Positions 31,675-63,755 of a stretch of 64,000 nt of DNA are shown here, in pieces. Numbering within the stretch: position 1 is the first letter of the stretch; every line of letters begins with the position of its first letter. Both the position numbers and the translations under genes were made by a program. The notes under the pieces are model-generated. The model searched no databases and was not told where the DNA came from. It saw only the letters and a program-made list of their open reading frames with translations. The stretch is from Moniliella sp. 'wahieum' (lineage: Eukaryota): the NCBI GenBank assembly GCA_003971905.1, contig RSEE01000034.1, forward strand, positions 186,001 to 250,000. The letters are read 5' to 3'.

Positions 31675-34600
31675 ATGGCTGCCGACCCTCAGTTTGTTGC
31701 GAGCATCAACCAGCTGCCCAGAACTCCCTCCTCCCCGACACCAACACTGTCAAGGCGGTGCGTACCACGCCCATCTTCCCCTCTTCGTCCCCGTGCTGAC
31801 CCGCGCACCGCAGGCCACCGAGGGTCTTCAAGCGCAGTACAAGAACCCGGCTATCGTCCCGGCTCTCTTGCAGATCCTTGCGAGTCCCACGGAAAATGGT
31901 GTTCGCCAACTAGCCGGTGTTGAGCTCCGGAAGCGCATTGCCAAGAGCGCCAAGGCCTGGTCCGCCCAGACCGTCGAGGTGCGCACGGCCATCAAGTCGC
32001 AGCTGCTGGAGATCGTCAAGAACGAGCCTAACAACTCGGTTCGCAACTCCTCGGCCCGGGTTGTTAGCGAGATCGCCCGTCGGGAACTCCCCCAGAATGC
32101 GTGGCCTGAACTGCTTCCGTTCCTTTTCACTGCCGCCGAGCAGGGCAACGCTGCCCAGCGTCAGGCTTCCGTCTTTGTTTTCTTCACCCTCCTGGAGACG
32201 TTCAACGACGAGGAGTCGGTCCAGGGCTACCTCCTCCTCAGATCATGCAACTGTTTACTCGGACTATCAACGACCCCGAGTCGCTTGCTGTGCGTGTGAC
32301 CACTGTCCGTGGCCTCGGCAAGGTTGGTGACCTGCTCGACAGCGACGCCACCGCCGACTTGGCTGCCGTGCAATCTGCCATTCCTCAGATGGTCCATGTT
32401 CTTCAGCAGGCCATCGATGGTGGTGACTCCGAGTCGGTCACGTTCGTCTTGGACGTTTTCGACACGTTCTGCCTTTCGGAACTGCCGATTATCAACTCCT
32501 GCCTCAGCGACCTGCTTGCATTCTACCTCTCGACGGCCGCTCGCGATGACCTGGAGGACGAAATGCGCGAGGCCGCACTCAACTCGACAATCTGGACCAT
32601 CAACTACAAGCGCCAAAAGATCCAGCAGCTCCAGCTGGCCAAGGTCATGATCCCCCACATTATGGCCATCCTGCCGACCGGCGACTTTGATGATGACGAG
32701 TCCAACCCTTCCACACTCGCCTTGCGATTGCTTGACACTCTGGCCACCGAACTTCCTCCCTCGAATGTTTGGCCCCGCTGTTTGAGCAGCTGCAGGCGTT
32801 TGCCCAGAACCCTGATCTTACCTACCGTGCTTCAGGCCTCCTGGCCCTTGGTGTTTCGTGTGAGGGGCTGTCGGAGACGCTGCGGCCGCAGATGGACCTG
32901 GTGGCAGTTTGTCGATGCTGGCATCAAGGACCCCGAACCCCGCGTTCAGCGCGCGGCGGCCATGGCCATTGCTTACCTTTGCGACCAGCTTGGGGATGAG
33001 ACGGTCAAGTACCACCAAGCGGTCATGCCCGCTCTCATGCATATGATTGGCCAGCCCGAACACAGCGCGATGCTACGCGTGCCCTTGATCGTTTCCTGGA
33101 GAACTTGGGCGAGGACATTAAGCAGTACTTGCAGCCGGTCATGGAGACCCTCGCTGGCTACCTCGACACGGTCCCTCTGGAGATCAAGAAGACGATCATT
33201 GCTGCCATTGGTTCCGCCGCGCACGCTTCGAAGCGGGACTTCCTCCCCTACTTCCCTGCTACCATGGCTAAGCTCACTCCGTTCCTTCAGTTCAAGGACA
33301 CGACCAACAATGAGCAGATGGACTTCCGTGCCATCACACAGGACACGGTCGGCACCTTTGGTGACGCGGTGGGCGCGGAAGCCTTCCGTCCTTACTTTGC
33401 CGACACGATGGCCATTGCTTATGATGCGTTCGAGTTGGACCAACCTCGTCTGCGCGAGTGCTCATTCATCTTCTTCAGCACAATGGCTAAGGTGTTTGGT
33501 GAAGAGTTTAGCCAGTTCCTTCCCCAAATTGCGCCAAAGATCCTCGAGAGCTTGCGGCAACAGGAGCACGAGCCTGTTGCAGGCGCCTCAGGTGACGCCC
33601 AAGCCCTCCTGGCTGGCGCTTCGGCTGAGGATGACGATGACGATTTCGTGGACATGGAAGACCTCAACGAGATCTTTGGTTCAATTTCTTCGGCCATTGC
33701 GATTGAGAAGGAGGTTGCGGCCGATTCGGTGGGGGAGATTTTCCGGTACACCAAGTCGGGCTTTTTGCCCTACCTCCAAGAGTCGGTGCAGGAGCTGGTT
33801 ACGCTTTTGCAGCACTTCAGCTCCGGCATCCGTAAGTCTGCTGTCAACTCGCTTTTCACTTGCATCAGCACCCTCAACACGATTCAAAATCCGGGCGAGT
33901 GGAAGGCTGGCCTCGCCGTGCCGGTACCCATCTCGTCGGATGTGGAGCAACTAATCGACATGGTGATGACCAACGTGTTCATCTTGTGGGAGGAGGAGGA
34001 TGACCGGTATGTGTTTCTTTTCCAATTGTCATTCCCTTGTAGGATGACAAAACTATCTCAGCTCACACCTAGTGGTGGAATAGGACCACCGCAGTGTGGA
34101 AAACCTACGTGGAGAAACTGATTCTTTTGCTGCATTATTTACTTTGAAAAAACTGTTACTGACTTGTTGTCTTTCCAGGTTTGTGGCGACGCAGTTGTGC
34201 GAGTCGCTGAGCGAGACGCTCAAGGAGGTGGGCCCGGCGGTGATTGCCAAGCGCACGGGGGATGTGGCTGATATTGCGATGAACATCCTTGAGAAGAAGT
34301 CCATTCCCCAATCTTCTCCCGGTGGGGATGAGGAGGAGGTCGACGAGGACAGCTCTGAGTACGAGACATGCTCATCTCTTCTGCGATGGATCTTGGGGTG
34401 CTATGGCCGACACGCTTGGTGCCGACTTCCAACAACCGTTGCAACGCTTCTTGCCTCAGATTACCAAGTACTACGGTCCGACCAAGGCTGTGGCCGAGCG
34501 GGCAGCCACGACGTCGGCGCTGGGGATGCTGGCTGTTGGGATGAAGGAGCATGTGACGCCCTTTACGATGCCCATGCTTGCTACTCTCTCCCACGCTGTG

Positions 34601-36193: not shown

Positions 36194-39100
36194 TCAATGC
36201 ACCACCTGCGCCACCACCCCGAGCGCATTGGGAAGGAAAGTCTGGTGGTCCCCAGCGACCTCTTGGACTTGCAAGTCGGCCGAACGGAACACTTCTTTCC
36301 AGTCCGACACTTTGGACGTCATCAAGCTCGGCGTCAGCGAGTCGTCCGACGCATTGACAATCAGCACGCTTGCCGGCTCCGCCCACTCGAGCGAGAAGGT
36401 GTGGGTGGGCACAGCTTGGGCGGCTTTGATGAAGTGCTGCCGTGACGGCTCGTACTCGACCGACGCCAACAACTTGTCCAACGAGCCCGGGGGAAGCGGG
36501 GGCATTTTCTTGTTGCTCCGCATCGCTGGCGAGTCGAGCAAGATCAACCGTTCCACCCCTTTGCCCTTGTGCACCAACTGACGCGCCACCTCGACCGCAC
36601 ACATGGCCCCAAGACTGTAGCCTCCTAGGTTGTACAGGCCATCGGGCTGGATCTGCTCGATGATCTTGGTATACTCGTCGGCCAGCGCCCGGAACCCATT
36701 CGTGGCTGGCCACCGGTCCTCGTGGCCTAAGAAGGGGGAGTTGAGTGCAATCACCGGCCGGCCCCACGTTGGCCCCATCACAGCCCGCGAAAAGCACCCA
36801 CCCACTCCACCACCATCCGGAAGCAGGATCAACGGTCCGGGCGAACTGGCATCGGGCTTGTAGGGTGGACCAGCAATTTGGAGCCAGGCCTTGCTGCCCT
36901 TGAGCACGCCTTCGGTCGTCAACATGGTGTCCGCCCCACCGGACGAGAGGGCAGGGCGGGGGGGCGACAGGCTAGCCCGCTGCCGCGCCGCCGTCGACAG
37001 GGCTGCACCCGATTGGTCCAGCTCGTGAACCGAGCTTCGAGAGCGAGCGGCCGAGCGCGGCGGTACAGCTGGAACAAGGGCACTGGGGATGAGGTGCTTG
37101 GTGCGTGCCTTCATTTGGTCAAAGGCGGTGGAGAGCAAGCGCTGCAGAGCAGAACGACGGATTTGCTTGAAGCAGGCATCGAGCATACACCCCACCAAGT
37201 TGTTATCTTCGTCGACCCAATACACATCCCCTTGTGCCACGTTGCCTTGCACCTCCATCCGAGACCAAGTCTTAAGCGTGCCCGAGTTGGGGCCAAACTG
37301 GGTCAGGCGAGGAGTGACGAGCGTGCGGCCAATGCCGTCTGCAATGTACACCGTATCCGGCTCGGCAATCATCACGTTGCAAATGAAGCCGGTCAGGCCG
37401 CCAAGCGAGTCGAGAATGTCGGGAGAAGCGATAAACTTGCCGTTGGTGGCCTTTTCCGGCCACCGGACCTGAGCCACGGCAGCCTCGTGCTCATCCGAGA
37501 TCCACATGCGCTCCATGCCTTGGTACGCCTCGCCATACTTGACAATCGCCTCAAACCGACGGTAAATCATGCTCTTGCGCAGCACCGTCGATGCTTCCGA
37601 GGGCATGTTGGCGATCGACTTGGTGACCAAGTGGCGCAGCCGCGCCCATTCCCGTTCGATAGTGGGCATGTTGACGAGACGGACGGTGCAGGTACCGTGT
37701 TGGTGCGTCGTCTCGCCTTCACGGGTGTAAAATTGGACGGTGCACCCATCTGGGTCCATCGGACTGCCAATCACCTCGACCAATACGGCTTGCTGCGGCC
37801 AGTCCGTGTTGATAAAGACGGAGCTAAACATCGAAAGGTTCAGCACCTCAAACGCCTCCGTTGTCGAAAGAGCGCCCGCCTCATCGGACAATTTGCTGCA
37901 CAGGTACTCCGCCGCTTCCATGGCCAACTCGCCAAACAGATGGGCAGGAGCAATCGCCACACCCACAACTACGTGGCCCAGAATCATCTCCCGCATGGGC
38001 GACTTGTTCAGCAGCGATTCGAAGGTGGCTGTGCAAGGCTCGGCGAGTTGTAGCTTGGTGCAGGATCCCAGTAAACTGCACTTGGGTGCCGGCAGGGACA
38101 CCCGACTTCCCCCCACTGAGCTCGCGCGCGAACGGGTTGTACGCGCCATGCTCTTCTGCTTCTCGACATTCACGTCGCGCAGTCCACGGTCCTGTTTAGG
38201 AAGAGAAAGAAGTCAGTGTCTGCAGTCCTTTTGCAATCCAGGGGAAGAGAGAAAGAGAGGACGGCACATACCATGTACGGGATGACATACTCGTCATAAT
38301 CAAACGCATACGACGGCAACTCGGCTGCGATGGCAACTGTGTGTGCACGCGAGTAGCCTAGCGAATCATGGATCGCAGCCCAGTCCATTTGAATATTGGA
38401 CTGGACGAGCTTAAGGAGTGTCTCTTGAAGCATGTGCCAGGCGCCTGCGCCGCGCTTCAGTGTGGGGATCATTGCCGGCGGCTTGGACTCGGAGGCAAAG
38501 ATGCTGCGCCATGGGTACCACCGTGCTGTGAGGGCCCAGCTCAACGAAGCACCGGATCGGAGGCAGCTGGTTCCGCTCCAGAGTCAAGGTTAGGGCAGAG
38601 ATGGCGTCGGCAAACCGGACGGGATCGCGCAAGTGCTTGACCAAGTAATCAGCGTTAAACACCCCGCCCCGCTCCACCACACGCCCACAATTGGCAGCGA
38701 CCATTTTGACGGGGGCACGGAAGGTGGCCTGGGCGGCAATAGGAGCATAGTGTGGCATCAGGGGCTGGACCGTCCGGCTGTGGAACGCATAGGGAACAGT
38801 GAGGAGCATGTTTTTGATCTTGGGTTCGGCTTGGTCGGCGAGAACCTTGACACGCTGGCATTCGGGAAGGGGGCCAGCAAGGACAAGGTCGTCGATCGAA
38901 TTGTAGCAAGCAATCTCACAGTTGTTTGCGGTAGCTTGCTGCATCAAGCGACGAACCACCCCCTCAGGTGCCTTGATTGCCAACATAGAGGAGGTATTAG
39001 CCTCGCAATGCTCAATCATTAGCTCGGCGCGCTTGCCCACCAACATGAGCACATCTGTCAACGACAATACGCCGGCCACATGCAAAGCGGCATACTCGCC

Positions 39101-42100
39101 TAGACTGTGGCCCATGACCGCTTGTACCGGAACGTTCCACAGCCGCAATAGGCTCGCCAGACTAATCTCGACAGCCACCAGGCCCAACTGAGAGTGGACC
39201 GGAGAGGGTTCCAAGCCCCCCGGCCCTTGGGCGGGATAGATGGCACTGATAAAGTCACCAAACCCAAGTGCCTTGGCCACATCGTTGCATTTGTCCATCG
39301 AGGCGCGGAAAGGAGGACTGCGGGCATAAAGCTCATGACCCATGTGGGAGTACTGCGATCCCTGGCCAGTGAAGGCGTAGGCAATCCCATGACCCTCGGC
39401 CGGCGGACGCGGGGCTTCCATGGGTTCTTGCTTTTCCAACAAGGTGCGCACCTCGTGGATCGTGTGGACCAATCCAACGACACGGTACGTGTGGTGTTTC
39501 CGCGTAGCCAGTGCCGCGCACAGGTGAGCGACGTCTGTGTGGGGATGCGAATCAAGCCAGGTAAGAAGACGCTTGCAATTCTCATTGACCGAGTAGAGGG
39601 TCGCGCCTGAGATAATGAGCAGTGCTGGTACCCGTTCGGTCAAGTGCGGGCTATCCTCCACCACCGGCCCAGGACGGACGATCAAGGAAGAGTTTCCGGC
39701 CGCGGCGGAAAAGTTGGCCACCCCATAGACACGGTCATCGTGGTGCTCAGAATGGGGCGGTAGTGGAGTGTTTTCCATAGGGATCTTGAGGCCATCCATG
39801 GGGGGCAGCCGAGTGTTGAGCTGCGTCCGAATGCCAATGTGACGTGGGACAATCTGATGCTTGGAGACCAGAAGGGTCTTGAGCAATGCAGAAGCCCCTG
39901 CCGTAGACTCAGAATGACCAATGTTGGCCTTGACGCTTCCAATCACTAACGGCCGGCCTGCCTCCCGGATTTTGGCATACGTCTCCACCACACCAGTCAC
40001 CTCTTCAAAGTCCCCTGCTGCGGTGCCGGTTCCGTGCATCTCGTTGTAAGCAATCTCGTTGGGGGTAGGGATCTTAGACGCGACCATGGCGCTGCGGTAG
40101 AGACGGCGTTGTGTGGGATTGTGCGGGTGAGTAATGGAATAGGTTTGTCCCGAGTGGTTGGTCACCGCCGAGTTGATTACCCCGAGGATATTGTCACCGT
40201 CGTTGACAGCGTCCGAGAAGCGTTTCAACACACAACAAACGCTAGCGCGTCAGCCCGTGAATAGCCATCGCCCTTGTCGTCCAGCGTCTTGCATTGTCCC
40301 GTGTCGGATAGGAAAAATCCACGGTCCAAGCCAATGAAGATTTGCGGCTGAGTAAGGACGTTGATCCCGCCAGTCAGGACGCGTCGGCTTTGCCTTGGAG
40401 CAGAAACGAACAGGCGCTTTCAATGGCAACAAGCGCACCGGAGCATGCCGTGTCACACGTGACGGATGGCCCACCCCAACCGAAGAAGCGATTGATTCGG
40501 CCGGGGATGTTGGCGCGCAGCAGGGCCGGGGCAAAGGGGGCAGAGATGGTGTAGGAGCGATTCTGTTGGTAATCGTCACTGCAGATACCAAAGATGGACC
40601 CAAAGCGGGACGGGTCATTGGAAGTACCTTTACGCGGAGCGTACCCTGCCGAGTCAAGCGCTTCGACTGCGACCGAGAGCGCAAGGCGTTGCTGTGGGTC
40701 CAGTTTGCGTGCCATTGTTTCGTCCATGCCGAAATAGGTTGGGTCCCAAATCCACGGGCGATCAATAAAGTTGCCCTGCATTGCCCGCATGGTGTTCTTG
40801 TCGCGGTACGAAGGGGTGCGGTAATCATCAACGTTAAAGAGGCGCTCGGGAATACGCTGGCACATGTCTTTGCCGTCCAGAAGGTTTTGCCAAAACGCAT
40901 CGACGGTCTCGGCTCCGGGAAGACGACAGGCCATGCCCACCACGGCAATCGACTCGGCCACGGTACCCCGCACGGCAGAGAGATTGACGGGCCAGTGCTT
41001 GTCAATCGGTTTAAAGTTGCCCTTGGCTGTGTCTGTCAGCACATCAATCGGCTCCGACAGGGTGACTTGAGCTTGAACGGCGTGGTAAGCCAAGTCCATT
41101 TGGACACTCTGGAGCAAAATTGAATTGGCTCCGATAGAGAAGAGCGCCACCTCATGCGCTTGGTCCGACGCGGTAGCCTGGGCTACGATTTGAGAAAAAT
41201 CAAGAGTGGTGGGTAGGGTCCGTCCACTGATTAGGTCACGGAGGACAAAGGTGCGCTTGGGCATGCTGCCATGGAGAAAGGCGAGATCAAGACCTTCAAT
41301 GAGGGGCATCAGGTGCTGCTCCACCACATCGAGAGCTGTTTCGACAGGCAGATAGCCAATCCCTTCAGCCGGGCTCGAGGCGAATCCATTGACCAACAGC
41401 TCGAGATCGAGGGCACCAAGGCTCATACGGGTGCCAGTGACCAAGGTAAAGTTGCCTGCTTTGATCGAGAGCATCTAAACAGAGAGGCCGAGACGGGGTT
41501 AGCACCAAAGATAAAAACGAATAGGGATGTGAAAAGAAAAGAAAAAACATACCTCTTTGGCGCCAGTCGGACCGACAAGGTGGGCTGCCGTCTTGGGAAC
41601 AATGAGGCGGTGGCTAAGGTTTTCAGCACCCATCATGGTAGCTTGGGTGTCGGTGGTATAGGCCAACGACCAAGCCAGAGCGACGGCTTGAGCACCATAG
41701 TGGGCCACATCGGTCATTCCAGTCGAGGCAGTGAGCACGCTCTCGGCTAGTCCGTAGGTGGTGAGATCGAGGAAGCCCTGGGTGCCGTACTTGAGGAGGC
41801 GGGCCAGTAGGTGGGGCTCGACGCCAGCTGTCACAGTGTTGGGGTTGAGGCCGGTGCTAGCGGCGATGATGGTAGCAAAGATAGCAATGAGTTCAAGCGC
41901 CGGGGTGTAAAGCGGGTCTGCGCTGAGGGTTGCCAGGGTGTTGGGAGCGGCAAGCTCGGCGAGGCTGAGGCAGGCCGCCTGGGGCTCCTCGCCGTTGGTC
42001 ACCAACATCTTGGCAACTTGGACATTGAGTGCGGAAAGAGAGGATTGAAGAAAGGCGGTGAGAAGCGGGAGGGAGGAGGAGAGACGGAGGAGAGTGGTGA

Positions 42101-42215
42101 GCTGGTGGGTGAGGGTCAGCTGCTGGGGATCGCCGAGGACAGTGACGAGCGGGGCGCGGTGGAGAAAGTGGAGCGGGTGCTCCCTGTCGGCGTCCGAGTC
42201 AGCGTGGTGGGCCAT
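36194..42215 (-). CDS. Iterative type I non-reducing polyketide synthase, SAT-KS-AT-PT-TE, apparently lacking an ACP
   Basis: [106 protein letters not shown]. Introns 41552-41475 and 38271-38192. Several 1-nt frameshifts. Confidence 0.93.
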
Positions 42216-43030
42216 GGTTGGGAGAGGGGGGTCGTGGGGTGTGGGGGGTGTGACGGGGTACGGAGGGGCGGGGGGTGCGGAGGCGGAGGACAGGCAGGGG
42301 TGCAGGCTGTTATATAGAACACTGGGGCGGGCAGGCGGTGACGGTGCGTGCTGCAAGGGGGGCGGGCAAGGGGGGCGCTGGCAGCAGGCCAGTGTGGGCC
42401 GGCCTTCTCGGGCCGCCCAAGGCGCAGCACGCGGGCATCTCGTCGATGCTCCGCCGGGACCCCGTTGGGGCGAGGCGGATGCGGATAGGCGAGGTGTGCA
42501 GGGGGCAGGTTGCGGCGGTAGGGGGGCACGCTATGAACAAGCGAGGTGTACTTTACCTCAATCGGCTACTGCGGCAGGCGCTGCGGGCGCTGCTGCAGCA
42601 TTACGTACGCCGGACGTATCCATTCCGTATTCGCTTTTCTGGTCACCTGACCGGCCACAGATCTTCCCTCGTTGCTCTCCGTCTGGTGTGGTGTGGTGAG
42701 TGTACTAAGTGTGCTGAGTACTATAAGCGAAGGTGTCAGTCTAAGATGAGCTTGTCGAGGCCTACAATTGCATTCACGCTCTGCGTCCCTCTGCCCCCGT
42801 GTCTGGCTCTGAGCCTGGCCCTGGCTCGGACGCAGCCTGTGTCATGGGCGCGAGCCAGGGCGGGCGCTGGGACAACCGAGTCTTGGCGATCGCCGAGGGG
42901 GACGCCAGAGCAACCCTCTTGTTCGTTCCCCTACCGCAGTAAGACGAACGTACCAACGTCCGACCTGTCTCTTGTCCCGGCGCAGAGGCTGGCGTTGCTG
43001 GTGTGCCTGGCGTGCCTGGTGTGCCAGGGG

Positions 43031-51857: not shown

Positions 51858-52541
51858 GGCACAGAGGATGGGTGGAGAAGCGGTGGTGGTGTGGCAACGG
51901 GCAAGGGAGAGAGATGGAGGTGGGGAAAGCAGAGCCCCCCCCACAAAACGGTCCGAGCACCCAACCCCAGTAGGGGCTGTAGTCACAATCAGTGTGTCAT
52001 CAAGCGCATGTGCTGCCTCTGGTAGGGGCGATGGCGCCCCCACATGCGAGCTCACGCGCTCAACCGAGTGCTGGGGGTACGGCCTACGATCTCAGACCAG
52101 CGCCCGGCCATCGGCGCTTGAAGCTTGACGCTTGACGCTCCGTGCTCGGTGCTCGGCGCTCGACCGTCTCTTCCCCAGTGCATTTTGATTTACTGTGGGG
52201 CTCCGCACTCAGAGGAGCCCTGTTGATGCATGATATATGATCGGTGATCCCAGGCGCTCGGGCCACCAGCCGGCCAGAGAGCGGCAGGCGGCGACCGACG
52301 CTGTGCTTGGGCAAGCGTACTGCTGCCCTGTGCACCCTTCTCCTCACATGTCACAGGTCACAGGTCACATGGTCGTTCAACGTTCATGACGTTCATGTCA
52401 CATGTCACGTGCCCTCCCCATCACACCTGCATCACCTGCATCGCCACCCTCGCGCGTCACGTGCATGCACAGCACCCCTGCCTTCAATTTCCACCCGAGC
52501 GAGCGCCGCTCGGCCACCACCGGCCACCCGTCCATGCACCC

Positions 52542-52573
<32 letters not shown>

Positions 52574-52613
52574 GCCACCAGCCCTCACCACCGCCAGCGC
52601 CAAACCTCTGCAC

Positions 52614-55600
52614 ATGGGAACGCGCATCCAGCGCACCCTCCTCCTCGCCACCCGCGCCGAGGAGGCCTATGCTGACTTTTGCGCCTCTGCCCCACCGCCA
52701 CCCGACTCCACCCCAGCCTCTCCGTCTGCAACCCGCCCACCACATGCCGGATGGTACCAACTCATCACCGACCTCCGCCTGGTCGCCACCGATCCATTCA
52801 TAACCGACTTTGATTCGCCCGGAGCGCCCTACTCGCCATCGACGCAGTTCCTTGTCGACCTCCTTGTCTCCTGCTCCCGTCTACCCGCCGATGACCAATG
52901 GCTCCTGGCCACTGCCCGCGGTCGGTACGGCGAACGAGTCGCTGCGTTCCTCTCGCACCAGCTCAACATCCATCCCCATCCCACAACCAGCTCCGATCTA
53001 CGCCCTTCGCCTCGCACCACCCTCCCTTTCAACCTTGGTTCGCCCACATCCCTACCCTCCTTGGCCAACGTACCGCCACCGCCGCGCTTCCCTTCCCTGG
53101 ACCCCCGCCTGCGCGTCTCCGCGTCCCCCTCTTCTACCGTCCAAGCAGGAGATACAAACTCCTTCGCTGTTCCCTATATGGGTGCCGCAGCGACGTTGCA
53201 GGGCCCAGCCCCCGCGTTACTGGATTCTTACCATCGCCGTGAAGCACTTATCCGTGTTCAACGAGTGGTCATTGATCGCATCCAAGAGTCACTGCAGGCC
53301 CAGGCCCGCGATGGGCTCAGTCGCACCCCATCGGACGAGAACAGCAGCAGCAGAAGGCCGGGCGCGGTCCAACGTGCTCCCTGGAGGTCCGGCTTGGAGA
53401 CGGACGGACAGTCCCGTGCGGCGGGGCGCGTCGCAGGACCCGACCGTTCTCAGCGTTCAAGCACAGAGCGATATTCGGACGTGATGGACCTTCTTGAGCA
53501 CTTATTTACGGCACAGCACGAGCGAACGATCGCTGCCAGCTCTGCGGCTGCCTCAGCTCGCAACACTACCGGTGCCGACCCAGAAATTACCCCCGTCGGG
53601 CGCTCTCGGACCCTTGGACCCTTACCCCATGCCCTATCCGGATCTAATGAGGACGTTCTATCTGCTTCCCCATCCTCCCGCTCTGCTCATCTTGAGCCAC
53701 CTGCCCACGACTCTCCGCCGCGTCCGTCCAGCCCCCTTTCATCCATGCGGACCCATCAAACCCCCTTTTCAGGCCCACCAACTCTCGACCCTCCCCCCAA
53801 TACTGAGTGGCCTTCTCAGTCCACCTCTACCTCGAGCTCACTCGTTTTGCCGGAAAATCGCAGCTTGTTGCCACCCCCTTTGCCCCAGCGTCGAACCGAA
53901 CGACCCACACCGTCCCAATCTCCCGACCCGTCCTCTGGAGGTACGGCAAGCGCAGGAAACAACTTGACTGAGGCCATTCCACCATCCCAGAGAGCACACG
54001 CTCGTTCACAGTCCCTGCAACGATTGGAGCTGGATTGGGGATCCCATTCTTCATCGACACAGTCGGGCCCAGCAACCGCCCGCCTGCGCAGTCGGCTTCA
54101 GACTCTTCCCTATCGCCACCCGCATCGCTCGGCCCACGTATACGTGGTGGATGAGGATGATCCCACCAGTGAATGGGCATTGATGCGTAAGTTTTGTTTC
54201 TATGAATTGGACGGATAAGAAAGCTGACTTTGTCTTAGGCGACGCTCAGCGTTCTTCACCACAAGTGCCCGATAGAAACACTGATCCTGACGGGGAAGAT
54301 CTGAATTTCAATCGGGAGGACATGCTGGTTCTACCCGACATCCCCGTCGCCTCGCCTCAAGGGTCGCTGGATTTTCCCCCGCCCCATTGTCCTCTCCACC
54401 GGACAATCCTCTGCCTAGAAGGGAACGGTGGCAGTTGGAAGGCTTCGCTCGAGACCTGCGGCTTCGCACCAGGCTGTCCCCTCCGCCTCTCCGACGCGGG
54501 GAAGGTACCGATGCCCTTCGACAGCAAGAAACCGAACCTTTGCTCCCTCCCTCGCCCCAACCCGAGGGTGACCTGCGTTCGACCCGGGGTCCCAGGCGCT
54601 TGCCTTCCATCACGGACGAGGACGTGCAGAACTTACGTCCGCAGGAGGGAGAGCGCCGCTTCTCCCGTGCTCCGGGAGGATACGCCCCCGGTGCACCCGC
54701 GTTGCAATCCCGCCGGACCCATAACCTGCGATATTTCAGATGGTACTCCGGTGTCAGCAAGTAGTGAGCTTCGGTCCCGAACACGGACCATGGCCGAGAC
54801 GATAGCGCAGTACCGTGAGGCGACGGCACTGTTGCAAAGCCTGCGTGTTCGGTTAAATGCGTTGGACCTGAGAGGGATGGGCGATAACCGAGCGACGTCC
54901 CAGGCAGTGGTGGAGCGCAATGTGGCGCGGCTGTCCGAACGAGGTGGCCGATCTGAGTCCCCGCCTTTGCCACCGCACACGCTCACTGGTTCTACAGCTG
55001 GGGGGCGGGAGGGGCCCTATGCCTCCCGCCAGCGCCTTGGCCGTGCAAGGACGTCGGAAGGGACTTCTTCCGTGCCTCTTGCCTCCCCGATACTGAGAAG
55101 TAGCGAACAACTCATTTCTCCCTCTGTCATACCAAACCGTCACTCCACCCCCCACCCCAGCTGACTCCCCTTCCCCCATGGCATCTCCCGCCGCTCATAC
55201 GGAAGAACAGTGCGCACCTCTCCCAGTCTGGCTGAACAAGGTACGCTCTCGCGTTGACATGGGCCAGAGGGAGGTACTACCCGCGCCGCTCCTCGGGCTC
55301 AGCATCGCGGATGGATCGTATCCCCAGCGACCATGTCTCGTGCCATGGACCTGTTCAATTATGGGAACGGGTCTCTTCCTGCATCCGTGGGAGCTTGGGC
55401 TGCGGCCATCGACTTGGTTGCTTTGCATTGGATCCTCACGGCACCACTTCCTCCTCCGTGGCAGAGTACGCAGCCGAACCCTTGCTCCGACGACCCCGAT
55501 CGGCCTCCAAAAAGCACTTATTTAGTCAATCACCCACACAGTTGGAGGTGGACCCTCTTGAGAACTTGGTCTCCGTCTCGCCCCAGTTAGCTGTGGGCAC

Positions 55601-56894
55601 GTTTACCATCTCTGGAGCGCCTTGGGAGCCACCTAGCGCCAAGGTGGAACTGCCGGAAAAGCCCACGCCGCTCTGTGCCCAAGCCACAGAGGAGTTGCTG
55701 GAGATGGTGAAGCATGGCATGACGGATCTTTGTGAAATGCCTGGGCGCGCATGGGACGCGGCGTTCGAGCTGAGTGCGTGCATGGACTTGCTCGATGGTG
55801 GAGTGCTCTGGGCTGCAACCCCACCGGGCTTGTTGGACACGGAAACAACAGCCCGTAGTGGACCGCAAATCCTTCACGACCTCGACTTGGCTTATCCAGA
55901 TGTGCGGGATGGAGTGCGTGCTGTGCACCTCGACGCTGTACCTCACGGTGTTGTGGGTGGAACGTATGCTAGCATTGCTCAAGCACATCCAAGCCCATCT
56001 TGCTCCTCCCTCGGTGGATCACGTAGGCCAACGTACGATACCGCTGCTCGAACTTACCCAGCTCCGCTTACCCGTCCTCTAGGCCGAGCCGGCGGTGGGT
56101 TACTCGAGATGCGGGACAAGAAGCAAGTGGATTCTGTCATGGATTCGACATTGGCTCTCGACCCTCACCATGGTCCTCACATCTCCATTCGGATGCGGCA
56201 AACGTTACCTCCGCGTCTCTTCTCCGTTCTGGACGATCGCAACGTTGTGCCTCTCCGACCACGGCCTCATCTGACCGATGCGTTGCCTACCATCACAGTT
56301 GCCGTCTTCTGTTCTCCCGCCACAGGCCTGGCAAAGGACCACGTGGCCCAAGCCAGCACGTGGATGGCGAACTATGAAGCGACTGAACTGACGCGTGAAG
56401 AGCAAAAGGTGAATGAGGAAGGAAGTTGCGCGTCTGGGTCTGCCAAGGGGATCTGCCCCTATGCTCTGTTTTCCTTGCTCCCGGTCATGTGGTAGCTGAT
56501 ACGGTGCAGTGGTGGGGCGGATGCGGGACATCTTCCCCCACCCCGCCCGTAGGCCCCGTAACGTCCTCGGAACGATGGAAAGCATGGGCCGCCCGCGCGG
56601 CGGCCCGTGCCGAGGGGAAAAGCACGACTGAAGAGGTGTCAAGTACCGCTACCAGTTCGGATTCCGAGCGCTCGCAAGTTTCCGTCAGTCCGCCCCTACC
56701 ACTCCCGTCTCCGGGGCTGCGCCATCCGGAGCGGGCGCAGAAATGGTGTTGACCGTCGCGGTAGCCGGTCCGGATGCGGAGGAGGTGCTGGAAGGCTTGT
56801 CGGTCGAAGTGCGAGGCATCACAGGTCGGCTTACCCGCCTCACATCAGCCCCGCCCTTTCTCTCCCGTCCGTACACCTCGCTCTTTTCTGTGTA
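52614..56894 (+). CDS. Large hypothetical, mostly disordered protein (possibly two genes)
   Basis: Chain of long + strand ORFs (52386-54218, 54202-55164, 55254-56495). Intron near 54187-54238 (GTAAGT..CTGAC..TAG). No domain confidently recognised. Confidence 0.5.
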
Positions 56895-57675
56895 GTATCT
56901 GGAAGAAGGAATGGATCGGTGATGACAAGTGCGATGGCTGTTTCTGGGACAGCTGAGATGGGCGGTATGTGCATGGAGAACTAGGGGTTAGTTGCTCACC
57001 AAGCCGATCTATCCTTTGGCCAGCCAAATGATCGATACCCTGGTTTGGAACGAGGGCGGGTGCATCTGGGTGGCCTTTTGAAGCTTGAACCTCCATGTCG
57101 ACGTTCTCCCTCTCGGCATCCTACCGCTTGGTAATAACGCAGCGCATGTCCCCGCTCCAAAATGTCAGGAATTTGCATGTGTTATTCGGACAGGTCCATG
57201 CGGATCAACTCCGTATGTCGCGATAATCATTTTCCAACTCTTGAGGCGAGGATTGAGAAGATAGCGAAGGAGCGGTAAATCGGCCGAGCCTTTGGTACAG
57301 CCGCCCCACCACTGTACCTACATGAGTCTTGGTCCGCTCTCCATACTAGTCACAGATGTCACACTTCTGAGTATGCCATCCAATTCCCACAAAGCCAATC
57401 CCTCCGACCGCGCCGGCCGCAACCTTCCGTCCCCACCTCCAGGCCCACCTCCCGACGGACGCGACGGATAACACACTGACAACGGTGGCTGCTACTACGT
57501 ATCGCCCCGTGAGAACCTCCGCCTTGGAAAGGTATTACCCACATCTCCAATCCATACTCAAAATGTTCCATTCAGGATATAGACAACGCACTCCGACGCA
57601 AAAAACATGACGAAAACAGTGACCGTCAGAAAGATTGGTTGGACCTTTCTATTAGTAGCATGCACATTTAGTGAC

Positions 57676-60024
57676 CTAGAGCTTGGACTTGCAGCAGGCA
57701 GCCCCCGCATTGGCAGGCACGGAAGCCGGGTCTTCGGTAGGCTTGATGTCCATCGCAGGGTTGCGAGGGAAGAAGAGAAATTGGGTTTGAAGTAAAATGA
57801 GACTTCATCCGAGGGCATGACAGGGAAGCTGGAGGAGAAAAGTGGAATGGGTCAGTCAAAAGAAAATAGAGAATGGGCAAGAAAGGCACATACTCCTCGG
57901 CGCGGGGCAAATGGGTAATGCCCGTTGTGAAAAAGACGACAATATCCTTGTTGCGGATGGGAGCTGTGCCATCGCCCACCCAAGCTTCGACCGTGTCGTC
58001 GGGCGTCTTGGTGGTCTGCACCAACATGCTTCCCAGCAGGGTACAGCCGGCCCTCCTCATATGGCACAGTCCACAATGCGTGCTTGGCAAATGGTGCGCG
58101 GGTGGCTAAGCTGTCCTTGTGCGCCAATAACTTGGGTTGCTGCGGATGACCAACTTGAATCCCACGGGTTTTTGGTTGGCATAGTGCTTTGTTCTCATTC
58201 ACAATCATCCACCCCCGCTCCGAGTCGGCATGCGCATCGCGCACCCCATCGCCAGTTCTTTCAAACGTCGTTGCGGTGCAATGTAGGCGTTTCCAGCCCA
58301 GTTGCGCGGATGGCCCGTGGGGTAGGGAGACGACTCCACATGTTGTTCCACCACACTGTTCAGGGGGCCATCAATGTGGGGGTCGATGCGAACGCTGTGC
58401 AAACCAGGGTTAGAGAAAAATAGGTTGGAATAGATGCGCAGGGGGGGGGCATAAACCTAAACAAGTGCTGATGGTACTGGGCGTTGATCCGGGGTGCCAC
58501 TTCATTGCCGTAGGTGGTCGTTTCCCCAGGGCCCAGAGGCGAGAGGTTGAGAATTCCGGTCAGATTGAGCTGCAACCCAGGTACCGTCAAGGAAGAACTC
58601 CCACGAAGCCTGAAACAAGATATCGTTAGCTTATCACGCAATTGGGATGGGAAGGAAACGGAAGGCGAAGTAGAGGGTGGGTCGCTTTGCATACCTTGTA
58701 CTCGTAGTTTGCCACAGTATACCGACGAAATGACAAGCTTGCGCTGGCGCACCGTGGCCCGCAGACCGCCAGGCCGGAAATCAGCATGGGTCCATGCTGT
58801 GCCGGCATTTCCTCGTGATGCAGATAGCGTTGCGAATGGTACGGAATGATCCATCGTGTTGGACCACGTGCCCATCCATGTACTCAATGCTGCCCAGGCA
58901 ATCGCACCCCAGCGACAACTCGTTGGCCAACATCCCCAGCCCGTACTCACCCACATCAAACGCAAACTTTTTGTACCAGGGGTAGGGGGGAGAGTAGGGC
59001 ACCACATCTCCGACAACGAGGCGCGATTAGAAACAACGGTCGCTCCACGGGTTTTCAGGCTGGCGCCAGGCGCTTCCGAGTCCTTGTACGAAATGGTAGA
59101 GAGGACAATACCTTCGCGCGGGTGAAAACCAACGTGGATCTTCCACTTTTGCCACTCTAGCACATTGTTTGCACGGAAAAAGGAGACGCCTTGGGGTTGG
59201 ACCACCTGGAGCGGCTTCAGATCGTCCCGGAACTCAAGCGGTTTGGTCCCTTCTGGGTTCTGTACCATTTTCGGGTGCCACTCGTGCTTTTTGCGCGGGG
59301 GGCCGTAGCGCGGACGCAAGGCTGGATCTGGCTTGGTGAAGCCAGCAGGTGGAGGCGCACTGGTAGCAGATGTGGACAGGTCGCGATTGGGGCCCTGGGT
59401 TCGCATGGGAGGGTAGTCAATTGCGAGCACCTCACCCGTGTTGCTGTCAAAAACAGGCGCAAAGTCCAGGGGATGCGCATAATGGTTATCGTCGGGGCTC
59501 CCAAAACGGGCATAGCAGTACGCCTCTTGAAGACGACGGCCGGGGAAGCGTGTGTCCCACCCAACGCACCACCCATCGGCATAGAGCTGGTGCGGCTCAA
59601 CACCAATTTCCTTCAACGCTTCGATCACCATAGGCGACTTGCGCAGCACTTCCTCCGCCTGGTCCAGCTCTTCAACCGTAAGCGTTGGCTGGACCCCCTC
59701 GGGCAGGAGCACGACGTGGTACACTGTGGCTTCGGGTGCCGACGGTGGGAGGGTGATGTACAGTTCGTATGCGCGGCCACCAATGGCATCAATAAGGTGC
59801 AGTTCGACTTGCCGCTCAATCTTGGTCTTGGGTTTTTCGGCAGCGCCTCCGGGCCATCGAAGGTACTCGATCACTGCGTTCTTCTCGGGCTCTTGCAAGT
59901 AGACATTGGTGATCTTGAAGGCCTTGAGGTGGAGCTGCTCGACGGCATGCTTCTTGGCCACCGCGGTGGCTGCCAGGATCTCGGCGGGCGTGGGCGGGTC
60001 GAGGGGGTGGAAGGGCAGCGACAT
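57676..60024 (-). CDS. Copper/TPQ amine oxidase, peroxisomal (PTS1 -SKL)
   Basis: HPLDP, NHYAHPLDF, WQKW..HVGFHPREG, AFDVGEYGLG, LGCDCLG, TPQ consensus YTVANYEY, Cu ligands YHQHLF and GITHLP, C-terminus ..AACCKSKL*. Introns ~58694-58610, ~58457-58397 and ~57892-57830. Frameshifts present. Confidence 0.95.
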
Positions 60025-60627
60025 GGTGGTGTGGGGGGGGGGGAGGGGGCGGCGATTAGGGGCACGAAGAACGGAGTAGATATATAGGCGGCACGGCGCC
60101 CGCCTGGTACCACAGAGGACGGATGGCCGGCCTGGAACGGCAGCCCTCCCGGCCAAACATCCGAGCGTATCTGTCTCTTTGGGGCTGGCGGGGTGGAGTT
60201 AGCTGCTTGCAGGCACAGCTACTATTAGATACTCAACCAGTGCTCAGCTACGTTGAGATTGGGATGATCGATGCTGGATGCTTGATGATAATGACTAGCT
60301 AATGACTAGACTGCCGACGGCCAAAGGCACAGCGGGCGCCGATTATCGCGGCACCCCACCTAGCGCACGGGGCCACTCTCAGCGCGCTTAGCGTTTCCCA
60401 TGCACCCGGAGTTATTAGCACCCCCTATTTGAACATTTAGCACCAGGCACCCTACGTAAGCAGCCACGGCGACACGGTGCGCGCAAACGGAAGAAGGAAG
60501 AAGGGCCGTGCGCCCCGTCGGCGCTTTTGCGGTCCCAGTGTCGTGTGCCGCCCAGAATTAAAAGGGCGGCCAGGCGCATGCGGCAGCTGCCCATCCCCAT
60601 CTCCTTCCTCACCCCCCTCGTCTCCTC
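60025..60627. promoter_or_regulatory. Bidirectional promoter between amine oxidase and formaldehyde dehydrogenase
   Basis: Head-to-head ATGs 603 nt apart. TATATA near 60081. GATAA at ~60286 and TTATC at ~60343 (GATA-factor-like). Confidence 0.6.
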
Positions 60628-61859
60628 ATGTCGACTGTTGGCAAGCCCATCCAGTGCACCGCCGCCGTTACCTGGGGTCCCGGCGAAGACGCCAAGATCG
60701 AGCAGATCACCGTCGACCCGCCCAAGGCTGATGAGGTCCGCGTCAAGGTCGAGTACACGGGCGTCTGCGAAACCGACCGTTTTGGCGGGTCGGGCAAGGA
60801 CCCCGAGGGAGTCTTTCCTGTTGTTCTGGGCCACGAGGGCGCTGGTGTGGTCGAATCGGTAGGGGAGAATGTGGACAATGTCAAGGTCGGCGACCATGTC
60901 ATCCTCCTCTACACGGCCGAGTGCCGCAAGTGCAAGTTCTGCCTGTCGGGCAAGACCAATCTGTGCCAGGCTGTGCGTGCGACCCAGGGCCAAGGCCTGA
61001 TGCCGGACCGTACAGTTCGCTTCCACGCTCAAGGTGTGTCTTCCCCCCCTGTCGCTCCTCCAACCCCCCTCTCACTTGCTGTAGAATGGTCCATTAACAT
61101 TCTCCTTTTTCCTGTGTTTGACAGGCAAGGACATTTTCCATTTCATGGGCTGCAGTGCATTCAGCCAGTACACGGTTGTGAGCAAATATTCGCTGGTGGC
61201 TGTGGACCCCAAGGCGCCTATGGACAAGATCTGCTGCTTGGGTGCGGTGTGACGACCGGATGGGGCGCAGCGGTCAAGACGGCCAAGGTGGAGGAAGGCA
61301 GCACTGTGGCAGTCTTTGGGATTGGCTGTGTCGGTCTGGGCGTGATTGATGGTTCGGTGTTCCAAAAGGCCGGGCGGATCATTGCGGTCGACATCAACCC
61401 CAAGAAGGAGGCATGGGCCAAGAAGTTTGGCGCGACTGACTTTGTCAATTCGGCCGCTCTGTCCGAGGGCAAGACCATCACTGACCATCTCATTGAGATG
61501 ACCGATGGTGGACTGGACTACACGTTTGACTGCACAGGCAACGTCAAGGTGATGCGGGCCGCGTTGGAGGCGTGCCACAAGGGCTGGGGCGTCAGCACCG
61601 TCATTGGTGTCGCCGCCGCAGGCCAGGAGATCAGCACACGGCCGTTCCAGTTGGTCACGGGACGCAAGTGGCAGGGCAGCGCGTTTGGGGGCGTCAAGGG
61701 CCGCACCGAATTGCCGGGCATGGTGGAGAAGTACCTCTCGGGCCAATTCAAGTTGGACGAGTACATTACCGACTCGACCGACATTGACAACATCAACGAC
61801 TCGTTCAGATCATGACGGGAGGTGAATCGATTCGATGCGTTGTGACGATGCACAAGTAG
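60628..61859 (+). CDS. S-(hydroxymethyl)glutathione dehydrogenase / class III ADH (glutathione-dependent formaldehyde dehydrogenase, Sfa1/Fld1-like)
   Basis: [107 protein letters not shown]. Intron 61034-61124. Frameshifts near 61230 and 61807. Confidence 0.96.
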
Positions 61860-62230
61860 ACGCAGCCCGCCCGAATATCCACCCCTCATCTCAATTTATC
61901 TAACCACGTATGTTCCCAACTTTACAGGCTCTCATGCTTTTTAGTCTATGCTTATAGAGGCCGCAGGAGATTGGGGCCGATTAGCGGTTAGCGCTTAGAC
62001 AACTGCGATGACGAAGAGGCGCCTTAAGACTTTAGGCTGATTTGGCCTCATTGTGGATGATGATGCAAGAACGTGTAGAAAGGCATGTGGTCGATGGGTC
62101 CGGGTAGGTCTGGACCACTTGCTACTTATGCGGACAGGTTCTGCATTGCTAAAAGCAGATAAGGGGGTCTGGGAATCAAATGCATCATGTATTAACAATA
62201 CCATGCTCTCGGGGTCATGCACACAGCGAT

Positions 62231-63755
62231 CTAGAACGGATACTTCTTGCGGTCGGCATCCTTATCATCACCAGCCCGTTCTTGAGCTGCTCCTCGTGTT
62301 TGGCGTCGAGAAAAGGCAAGACGTGGTCGACGTACAAATCACCGCCCTTGTACCAGCGCACATCGTCCGGCCAGCAGCGCATCGAAGAAGCCAAGCGACC
62401 AGGCACACCCACTCGTCGACCATAGTGAGAAAGGGGACGATGTACGTGCGCACGGTAAACACAATCGCCTCTGATTTGGGAAGCGACGGAGAGATTGCCG
62501 TTCAGTACGCATGACCAGGTGCTCGTAAAAGCGCTGCTGCTCTGCTTCCGACGATTGAGCATGATGAGCTGCACTGATGGCCATCGGATCGTACCCCGGC
62601 CGGAGCAATCGGGTTGGGATCGTGGCTCTCCTTGGTAGTTTGGTCATAGTACTCTTCCCGCCCGTTCATCAAGCTTCCCCAGTTGATTTCTGCCGGGTCG
62701 GGCATCTCCTTTCCGCCATACGGAAGGGAGGCCAGGTCGTACGCGCTCGACTCGCCCTTGGGACAGAGTTGCAGAAAAAGTTGTTGCGGCTGATAATGTC
62801 GTCGGGGTCATGCGGGCAAAGTACTTGTCCATAGGACCCTGCAGCTTGGCCTTGTACTGCGGTACACTGCCTTCATATGCAGCTCCTGCAGTGTCAGCCC
62901 CAGTTTGTCGGACAGACGCCAAAAGCCGGCCGTGCACGCGCTCCCGCCAATCACTTGGAACTGATCTCCGCGGGTCGGGTCGCGATCAAAAGGAACGTGT
63001 CGTCCGGTTGAGGCTGCCGACCATCTCGAGTGATCCCTCAGGGTGGTAAGGTCGTACACCTCTTTCAATTCACCTGCCCGCTCCACCGTGTCGTTCCCTT
63101 ACCCGTCAAGATAGGCAGGCAAGACGTGCAGCCGAACCGCCACTTGCTCGCCCGACGAAGAGCTGTGCTCTAACCGAAAAAGTCAGGGTATTTGGTACTC
63201 AACCAATGGCCATGCCCAATCTCCAGAAACGGGCCTCGTGCCGGCCATCGTCACTGGCAAAATGGGTTGGCATTTTCCGGCATGGTCTGTTGCCGCCACC
63301 GACGCAAGGTGTGTGGTACCGAGGAAAGTGACGGTCCAGCCTAAGCCAATCCGACCAGCCGACCTTGACAAGGCCCATGTTGATAGGGTAAATGGGACCC
63401 CAGCGGAACGGACGGTACTTGAACGTTCGGGAATGTCGGATGCACCCCGGGCTCTACCTCGCCTTCCCATGCGAACTTTTGCTGGACTGGCCATAGGAAC
63501 AATGACATAGATACGTTAGCGTTTGGGTTTTTGGTTCCAGCCAAAATACAGATCCGGAAGACGGGAGCGTACCTTAGGATCCGAGGCAAGAGCTGCGACG
63601 GGCTTCTTGACTTGCTGTTGGCGTTGGGCAAGCTGTTGCGCAATCAGCAGGGCGATGGCAGCGACGAGAGCAACCAAGACGGCATGCTTGCCATGCGCCT
63701 CGAACAGGGGCACGAGACTGCTGGCGCTGGTGGTGCTGTTGGCGATGACACTCAT
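62231..63755 (-). CDS. DUF3445 / heme-dependent oxidative N-demethylase alpha-subunit-like protein with N-terminal membrane anchor
   Basis: Stitched across frameshifts: hydrophobic AVLVALVAAIALLIA; intron from 63572; YRPFRWGPIYPINMGL..WSDWLRLD; ACTAGFWRLSDKLGLTLQELH; VPQYKAKLQGPMDKYFARM..RNNFF; MRTERQSLRRFP..IVFTVRTY; VPGRLASSMRCWPDDVRWYKG; ends ..DRKKYPF*. These match the fungal DUF3445 pattern as I recall it. Confidence 0.88.

Follow-up and report, generated by a model that had tools for sequence, protein, structure and literature searches.

Adjacent genes for a copper amine oxidase, a class III alcohol dehydrogenase and a HODM-like haem protein in a fungal genome: a candidate locus for N-methylamine use

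The methylated-amine pathway of yeasts comprises AMO1, SFA1/FLD1, FGH1 and microsomal di- and trimethylamine monooxygenases that were left without a gene (PMC5816127). The microsomal activity is CO-sensitive and its gene was still unidentified in 2017 (PMC5816127); a later literature search did not find a gene for it either. In bacteria DmmABC converts dimethylamine to methylamine at a ratio of 1:1, and it is encoded beside a formaldehyde-handling gene (PMC5520151). Here we present a locus that makes the PF11927 family (HODM_asu-like, formerly DUF3445) a candidate for this missing step of fungal nitrogen metabolism, open since the 1980s. The locus lies in the window, by which we mean the whole stretch of 64,000 nucleotides that was analysed. 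If the assignment is true, a large and misannotated fungal family would gain a function, fungi would possess, besides the P450s, another kind of haem monooxygenase in the ER, and the result would bear on methylated-amine turnover in soil, on leaves and in fermented foods. The locus itself would then be a metabolic cluster that one lineage built from genes lying apart elsewhere.

Identity and integrity of the three genes

An earlier note on this DNA had described a copper amine oxidase head to head with a glutathione-dependent formaldehyde dehydrogenase, followed by a DUF3445 gene on the minus strand. Start and stop codons confirmed this arrangement, and the enzyme identities were borne out by Pfam domains, a PTS1 on the oxidase, class III matches of the dehydrogenase, and the HODM fold and active-site positions of the third protein. 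In the Pfam search, run on 22 reading-frame pieces of the window, the Cu_amine_oxid domains, ADH_N with ADH_zinc_N, and PF11927 were all matched, the last in pieces that singly remained below the cut-off.

The copper amine oxidase gene is encoded on the minus strand (start 60024, stop 57676). Its N2, N3 and enzyme domains were found in five pieces from 57671 to 60024, and it contains three introns (58694-58610, 58456-58395 and 57893-57829). All three domains, the Asp base, the N-Y-E motif and three His were present; we take the catalytic Asp to be encoded at approx. 58957, the TPQ Tyr of N-Y-E at approx. 58706 and the copper His at approx. 58473, 58467 and 57913. The protein terminates in SKL, a canonical PTS1 that was detected in just 5 of 104 full-length amine oxidase homologues. 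When compared with structures of peroxisomal methylamine oxidase from yeast (1A2V and its kin), a relative (P0001) that is 81% identical to the oxidase of the window scored 291 bits; its score against 3LOY, which we take to be a benzylamine-type paralogue, was 161 bits. Judged from its sequence, the oxidase is of the methylamine oxidase (Amo1/HPAO-1) type, with a closer match to that enzyme than to the remaining oxidases of solved structure.

Between the oxidase and the dehydrogenase lies a divergent intergenic region of 603 bp (60025..60627), possibly a bidirectional promoter, in which a motif scan located a TATA-like site at 60086 (minus) and GATAA at 60287 (plus) and 60347 (minus). The class III alcohol dehydrogenase (S-hydroxymethylglutathione dehydrogenase) extends on the plus strand from 60628 to 61859, with ADH_N and ADH_zinc_N matched from 60628, one intron at 61034-61124 and frame breaks at approx. 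61233 and 61810. The best PDB matches of both halves were all class III: 168 bits compared to at most 123 bits for other classes in the first exon, and 241 compared to at most 204 in the second part. TIGR02818 reached 476 bits against a cut-off of 544, on a broken frame that still contained the intron. The Q-x-x-R-x-T-Q-G motif, presumably with the substrate Arg, and D-P-E-G, whose role we likewise assume, were present. At 60766 the sequence reads C-E-T-D-R-F-G-G, whereas the human ADH5 counterpart is C-H-T-D-A-Y-T-L; in the C-H-T-D motif after the catalytic zinc Cys, a Glu thus takes the place of the usual His.

The PF11927 gene (minus strand, start 63755, stop 62231) lies tail to tail with the dehydrogenase, 371 bp away, and has an intron from 63572 to approx. 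63482. Beyond its start 245 bp of the window remain, and the remainder of the window consists mostly of housekeeping genes. Among the scanned ORFs of the window there was no reductase, transporter, S-formylglutathione hydrolase or regulator, nor any bacterial-type partner subunit of HODM (reductase or others), with those 245 bp visible past the PF11927 start.

All three genes are broken by indels of 1-2 bases, a feature absent from the earlier note. Alignment to the intact relative P0121 showed that 1.2 kb of the PF11927 gene holds 17 frame breaks, across which 312 of 376 aligned residues were identical. Since housekeeping genes of the window (TOP3, importin and a P5A ATPase) break in the same manner and intact relatives exist, we concluded that the breaks are most likely assembly errors. 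Were the frameshifts genuine, the genes would be pseudogenes of a decaying locus, and the 17 breaks do exceed the number in NFS1 or in the first 320 oxidase codons. Identity between breaks is, however, 83% for PF11927, on a par with the 84% of the oxidase and its own relative, and the read-through leaves no in-frame stop. A near-identical contig of 162 bp has indels at 59004-59051 that coincide with breaks (depth 3.2, weak), and another, related contig skips the dehydrogenase intron and supplies the extra base at 61233. With the housekeeping genes damaged alike, we regard decay as extremely improbable. One matching sequencing run (0.06 of words) yielded short pieces, none of which spans two genes.

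Fold, active site and anchor of the PF11927 protein

PF11927 was matched in four minus-strand pieces (62271-63098), in model order and at 18.8-21.5 bits each, below the 25-bit cut-off when taken alone; P0121 scored 185 bits against the same cut-off. The profile of the protein matched 5LTE with an E value of 2.6e-22. A structure model of P0121 (pLDDT 73, pTM 0.77) matched 5LTH in Foldseek with an E value of 3e-14 and TM scores of 0.62/0.72, the next non-HODM match having an E value of 0.09, and HODM was the sole PDB match by profile as well as by structure. Searches with shorter pieces gave no result: a 50-residue N-terminal piece returned no candidate homologue, an 84-residue piece no usable match in the ESM Atlas, and a 96-residue piece no match in the PDB.

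Site positions were assigned by alignment to the 5LTE chain. W180, H194, R224 and E266 of HODM correspond to the codons at 62921, 62879, 62788 and 62503, respectively. We take His194 to be the haem ligand and Trp180, Arg224 and Glu266 to be site residues; the roles of the active-site residues were reportedly described by Ortmayer in 2016. Seven positions (W, H, R, N, R, E, R) were invariant in 120/120 fungal homologues and present in the copy of the window. A transmembrane anchor was predicted at residues 25-43 (63627..63683, minus strand), with a Kyte-Doolittle 19-residue mean of 2.43; similar N-terminal segments were found in 98 of 107 fungal homologues and in 0/107 control stretches. The predicted anchor together with the haem fold is in keeping with the di/trimethylamine monooxygenase of yeast microsomes, an enzyme that is sensitive to CO.

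Identity to HODM in the structural alignment was 16-18%, and therefore the specificity of the pocket is not transferable. This low identity, together with a long insertion in the PAS-like region of the fungal protein, leaves the pocket open to another N-methyl substrate such as trimethylamine, an N-methylated alkylamine or an amino alcohol, from which a functional cluster would produce formaldehyde and an amine for the oxidase. Yeasts have separate CO-sensitive activities for di- and trimethylamine (PMC5816127). Trimethylamine would, however, require a second demethylase, which is missing from the adjoining genes; the oxidase belongs to the small-amine type, and all four HODM site positions are retained. 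We consider such a substrate unlikely, though well worth keeping in mind.

Gene order elsewhere and ancestry

The proposal that the trio is a conserved eukaryotic cluster was not borne out. No amine oxidase or class III ADH was located near PF11927 in any of the 80 loci from metagenomes, which form 56 clusters at 95% identity (21 of these have 5 kb or more on each side), and the trio was adjacent in 0/11 annotated assemblies. Both counts cover fungi other than close relatives or sister species; the proteins of the close relatives come from contigs of 2.2-4.0 kb, too short to show adjacency. A lack of co-localisation in other fungi, which the earlier note had named as evidence against its reading, was the outcome throughout this sample. 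ALG9 adjoins the PF11927 gene in 38 of the 45 loci with 3 kb upstream, a housekeeping setting that is also that of the ascomycete orthologue; Naf1 and Exo5 are other neighbours. Neither an amine oxidase nor a formaldehyde gene was detected among 70 ORFs from six loci, mostly without ALG9. One of them (L035) carries genes for an amino-acid permease and for a regulator of the Zn2Cys6 type, both within 9 kb.

In the phylogenetic tree P0121 sat on a long branch (1.02) and came out as sister to the homologues from Ustilaginomycotina with a support of 0.98. The family is retained across Dikarya, mushrooms and lichens included, which may point to a more general substrate, and the budding yeast Geotrichum candidum has a PF11927 gene. 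Prokaryote genomes gave 7 weak matches (6 actinobacterial and 1 from Pseudomonadales), and none of 32 pattern matches in viral contigs was a relative. A bacterial origin of the entire cluster by horizontal transfer was rejected, given the introns and the placement of the genes among fungal homologues in the trees. The oxidase is probably old and vertically inherited, its position within basidiomycetes being poorly supported (0.20). We propose that the PF11927 gene is likewise old and vertically inherited, and that it was brought together with the others in the present lineage. The trio therefore amounts to a single strong clue from gene context, confined to one lineage that resembles Ustilaginomycotina, and does not represent a cluster widespread among fungi.

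The same neighbourhoods bear on whether the genes belong together at all. The oxidase and the dehydrogenase could form a methylamine unit by themselves, with the PF11927 gene as a bystander engaged in, e.g., haem-based sensing or a housekeeping ER reaction. That gene is placed tail to tail with its own promoter, no clearly shared motif was found between the upstream regions, its neighbours elsewhere are ALG9, Naf1 and Exo5, and HODM is a PAS-fold protein (PMC8694187). Yet landing by chance beside such a pair has a probability of about 2-3 x 10^-4 per genome under assumed gene numbers, and the gene that landed happens to be a homologue of an enzyme producing the substrate of the pair, which makes a bystander quite improbable. 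That all three genes are unrelated and adjacent by accident would agree with the 0/80 loci and 0/11 assemblies, with the mostly housekeeping content of the window and with the very many windows scanned. Against it stands a joint probability of 2-7 x 10^-7 per genome (a rough value, computed after the arrangement was seen and assuming 6,000-10,000 genes, 2 class III ADH and 3 amine oxidases), and the link is predictable from independent bacterial biochemistry; we hold accident to be very unlikely.

Proposed pathway and comparison with known systems

It is quite probable that the cluster acts on some N-methylamine, and we lean, by a little, towards a lineage-restricted nitrogen-scavenging cluster for dimethylamine, with conversion to methylamine and formaldehyde at the ER, release of ammonia in the peroxisome and removal of formaldehyde. 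The PF11927 protein, presumably held in the ER by its N-terminal helix, would bind haem via the equivalent of H194 and oxidise dimethylamine with O2 to methylamine and formaldehyde. Because it comes without the bacterial partner subunits, we propose that electrons would be supplied by the ER system of the host, e.g. cytochrome P450 reductase or cytochrome b5. In the peroxisome the copper amine oxidase would then convert methylamine to ammonia, formaldehyde and H2O2, a chemistry established for enzymes of the methylamine oxidase type. The dehydrogenase would oxidise S-hydroxymethylglutathione, as established for class III ADH, so that both formaldehydes are cleared. The divergent dehydrogenase may be a copy specialised for formaldehyde flux derived from dimethylamine.

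The pathway logic of the earlier note was strengthened by the PTS1-bearing oxidase of methylamine oxidase type, the class III ADH, the HODM fold and site and the predicted anchor; its conserved cluster did not stand, and dimethylamine is an inferred substrate. The occurrence in one genome, the absence of the trio from the other fungi sampled, the ALG9 setting, the hint of a general substrate, the low identity to HODM, the lack of partner genes among the scanned ORFs, the His-to-Glu exchange in the dehydrogenase and the long branch of P0121 count against the dimethylamine cluster.

More broadly, we see an even chance that the anchored PF11927 proteins found throughout Dikarya are the never-cloned microsomal, CO-sensitive dimethylamine (or trimethylamine) monooxygenases described from yeasts in 1983-84. 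The enzyme would be a non-P450, His-ligated PAS-fold haem monooxygenase in which an ER electron chain replaces the bacterial reductase subunits, and its gene would here, as a rare case, have been recruited beside both product-handling enzymes.

The window protein has its Pfam family and fold in common with HODM alpha of Pseudomonas mendocina (5LTE/5LTH/5LTI) and DmmABC(D) of Ruegeria pomeroyi, and it keeps the W180, H194, R224 and E266 positions as well as a genomic tie to formaldehyde disposal. In contrast to these systems it is a eukaryotic protein of low identity (see above), with a predicted N-terminal membrane anchor, and is encoded by a single, intron-containing gene that lacks partner subunits nearby; where the bacterial systems have a tetrahydrofolate-binding subunit, this gene is flanked by those of a glutathione-dependent dehydrogenase and a copper amine oxidase. 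Other fungal proteins, labelled 'alpha-1,2-mannosyltransferase', 'mannosyl transferase' or 'HRQ family protein', belong to the same PF11927 family and have the anchor and the invariant residues, but none of those sampled adjoins amine or formaldehyde genes, and in Pezizomycotina they adjoin ALG9, which is probably the origin of the mannosyltransferase label. Compared to the yeast pathway, the oxidase is a homologue of AMO1, the dehydrogenase a homologue of SFA1, and the anchored haem protein matches what is expected of the CO-sensitive step in microsomes that is still missing. The window organism is of basidiomycete type and its genes are physically linked, whereas the word 'cluster' does not occur in the description of the yeast pathway (PMC5816127), and the oxidase carries a C-terminal SKL where yeast Amo1 has an N-terminal PTS2.

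Gene layout and frame breaks

The earlier note had named three neighbouring genes, an amine oxidase, a formaldehyde dehydrogenase and a DUF3445 gene, and a Pfam run over 22 frame pieces confirmed all three: a copper amine oxidase (60024–57676, minus strand), a zinc alcohol dehydrogenase (60628–61859, plus strand) and a gene of PF11927, formerly DUF3445 (63755–62231, minus strand). The amine oxidase and the dehydrogenase stand head to head with 603 bp between them, the dehydrogenase and the PF11927 gene tail to tail with 371 bp between. To the right of the PF11927 start the window extends 245 bp only. To the left, four long ORFs between 51060 and 56492 gave no Pfam match, those immediately beside the trio (52248–56495, plus strand) encoding 656, 326 and 419 aa. 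Elsewhere in the window 30 ORFs were mostly housekeeping; an MFS transporter and a polyketide synthase approx. 40 kb off also belong to this set. The polyketide synthase, of non-reducing type (36194–42530, minus strand), had KS, AT and thioesterase domains and a product-template-like one; its five scanned ORFs gave no acyl carrier domain, and frame breaks could conceal one.

Indels of 1–2 bases disrupt all three genes of the trio. In frameshift-aware alignments the PF11927 gene showed 17 events against its intact relative P0121 (312/376 residues identical) and the amine oxidase 6 against its relative P0305 (371/440), the first approx. 320 codons being event-free. Like indels interrupt conserved motifs of TOP3 (near 8435), importin (32800–33100) and a P5A ATPase (near 26915), and they occur throughout the window with the highest density in the final 6 kb examined. 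A 162-bp contig from sequencing run X1, with 5 substitutions, has indels at the break sites 59004, 59028, 59031 and 59051, a weak signal at depth 3.2; another, more distant X1 contig, which is without intron, supplies the base absent at 61233. We read the breaks as assembly errors, and pseudogenes as the least probable of the explanations weighed. Indel errors pervade this assembly; apparent pseudogenes of this genome are to be distrusted.

The amine oxidase and the dehydrogenase

The amine oxidase has an Asp, an N-Y-E motif and three histidines, which we take to be the base, the cofactor motif and the copper ligands. It ends on SKL, a canonical PTS1 shared by only 5 of 104 full-length homologues. 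For its relative P0001 the scores were 291 bits with the peroxisomal methylamine oxidase of yeast (1A2V and kin), 161 with 3LOY and approx. 150 with phenylethylamine oxidase. The closest oxidases with taxon names were from Ustilaginomycotina (approx. 50% identity), and Logan proteins reached up to 81%. In the oxidase tree the window copy grouped with basidiomycete sequences, though not within the branches of Tilletia and Thecaphora, the exact placement having a support of 0.20. As a guess, the source may be an Ustilaginomycotina yeast poor in introns and not among the annotated genera, Moniliella for instance. Ustilaginomycotina-like amine oxidase and PF11927 proteins filed under the fern Adiantum nelumboides (P0094, P0325) are probably fungal contamination.

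Both halves of the dehydrogenase had class III chains as best matches. At 60766–60789 it reads C-E-T-D-R-F-G-G where C-H-T-D-A-Y-T-L is expected. Since this exchange needs nine base changes by our count, and a 215-bp X1 contig spanning the site has five differences and zero gaps, the replacement is probably real and not an error; it could point to a second copy with a specialised role, or to reduced activity.

These two genes could form a methylamine pair with the PF11927 gene as a bystander, a reading we consider rather unlikely.

PF11927 genes in other fungi

The trio had also been put forward as a possibly undescribed eukaryotic cluster. The locus does not qualify as a conserved fungal cluster, the arrangement occurring in 0 of 80 metagenome loci and 0 of 11 annotated assemblies. 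Of 283 metagenome loci with a PF11927 homologue, the best 80 gave no copper amine oxidase or class III dehydrogenase by tblastn, the window itself being recovered as positive control. These loci formed 56 clusters at 95% identity; 34 (21 clusters) had 5 kb on each side and 53 had 2 kb downstream, room for a dehydrogenase. They were mostly from Pezizomycotina, basidiomycetes contributing two short loci only. Amine oxidase and PF11927 genes were likewise not adjacent, lying on contigs of unequal length or under differing locus tags, in Testicularia cyperi, Violaceomyces palustris, Heliocybe sulcata, Panus rudis, Earliella scabrosa, Gelatoporia subvermispora, Rhodosporidiobolus nylandii, Taiwanofungus camphoratus, Auricularia subglabra, a probable fungal contaminant within a fern assembly, and Exobasidium rhododendri, where one chromosome holds both 297 locus tags apart; this comparison concerned copies returned by the searches and excludes the dehydrogenase, divergent paralogues and sister species. 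The trio is a real, lineage-restricted arrangement, which rests on one error-prone assembly, conservation not being found in the loci and assemblies sampled. Adjacency by chance would agree with these results, but we hold it to be very improbable.

ALG9 adjoins the Pezizomycotina PF11927 gene in 38 of 45 loci with sufficient flank, with Naf1 and Exo5 recurring nearby, and the orthologue lies immediately downstream of ALG9 in 42 of the 80 loci (L002–L078). Because of this adjacency and the fused gene models present in databases, the label 'alpha-1,2-mannosyltransferase' on the family probably has its origin here. A Geotrichum candidum-type budding-yeast copy (L071, 5595–6878) is adjoined by isochorismatase, Nudix hydrolase and MFS transporter genes, with no amine oxidase among these neighbours.

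Three AT-rich contigs (GC 0.29–0.33) carry intronless, anchored, fungal-type PF11927 genes directly preceded by a glycogen debranching enzyme gene (L032, 1526–2683; L079, 1064–2236; L080, 4450–5622), and L080 has further nuclear-receptor zinc-finger and F-box ORFs. Their PF11927 proteins cluster with ascomycete homologues (support 1.00). This looks like fungus-to-animal transfer, the recipient possibly, as our guess, a bdelloid rotifer.

The PF11927 protein and a proposed dimethylamine pathway

A PDB search with a profile of 11 fungal PF11927 homologues gave the bacterial haem-dependent oxidative N-demethylase (HODM) as sole match (E 2.6e-22). The AlphaFold model of P0121 matched its alpha subunit in 5LTH (E 3e-14) and 5LTE (E 2e-13), with no other match below 0.09. 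Equivalents of HODM W180, H194, R224 and E266 were invariant in 120/120 fungal homologues, the best 120 of 644 matches, and are kept in the window copy; these residues were reportedly assigned by Ortmayer et al. in 2016 as haem ligand and as substrate and oxygen contacts. A hydrophobic N-terminal segment was present in 98 of 107 fungal proteins and 0 of 107 control stretches, after 13 of the 120 had been removed as truncated, fused or without anchor motif; that of the window copy scored 2.43. In a midpoint-rooted tree of 46 chosen sequences (336 columns) P0121 was sister to Ustilaginomycotina proteins on a long branch (support 0.98).

On the grounds of fold and site, the PF11927 protein probably works like HODM. 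It would be located at the ER, bind haem, receive electrons from a donor and use dimethylamine as substrate, its products being consumed by the adjoining amine oxidase and dehydrogenase, and the trio would be co-regulated. We favour such a dimethylamine cluster by a modest measure. A cluster for another N-methylamine would be compatible with the same three genes; the HODM-type site points to dimethylamine, and we judge this alternative clearly less probable, though the likeliest of the others.

According to PMC5816127, whose reference list includes Green and Large 1983 and 1984, the enzymes with which budding yeasts demethylate di- and trimethylamine are without an identified gene, are reported at the ER and have P450-like traits. 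There, deletion of two CYP genes was without phenotype, SFA1 was essential and AMO1 needed in part, and the author proposes a different enzyme family for the demethylases. The trio arrangement turns this decades-old gap into a directly testable question. Neither a function for fungal PF11927 proteins nor a trio cluster was found in the literature, subscription journals and supplements lying largely outside the scope; the pertinent parts of PMC13390433, PMC8694187, PMC10406608, PMC6320622, PMC12778737 and PMC5809485 go no further than naming the family or the demethylase of bacteria.

According to the pertinent sections of PMC5520151, DmmABC converts dimethylamine to methylamine 1:1 and requires all three subunits in vitro, and dmmD is tied to formaldehyde handling. 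The fungal PF11927 protein does not belong to the multi-subunit HODM system of bacteria, and it has the hydrophobic N-terminal segment, whereas the bacterial HODM alpha subunit is without it.
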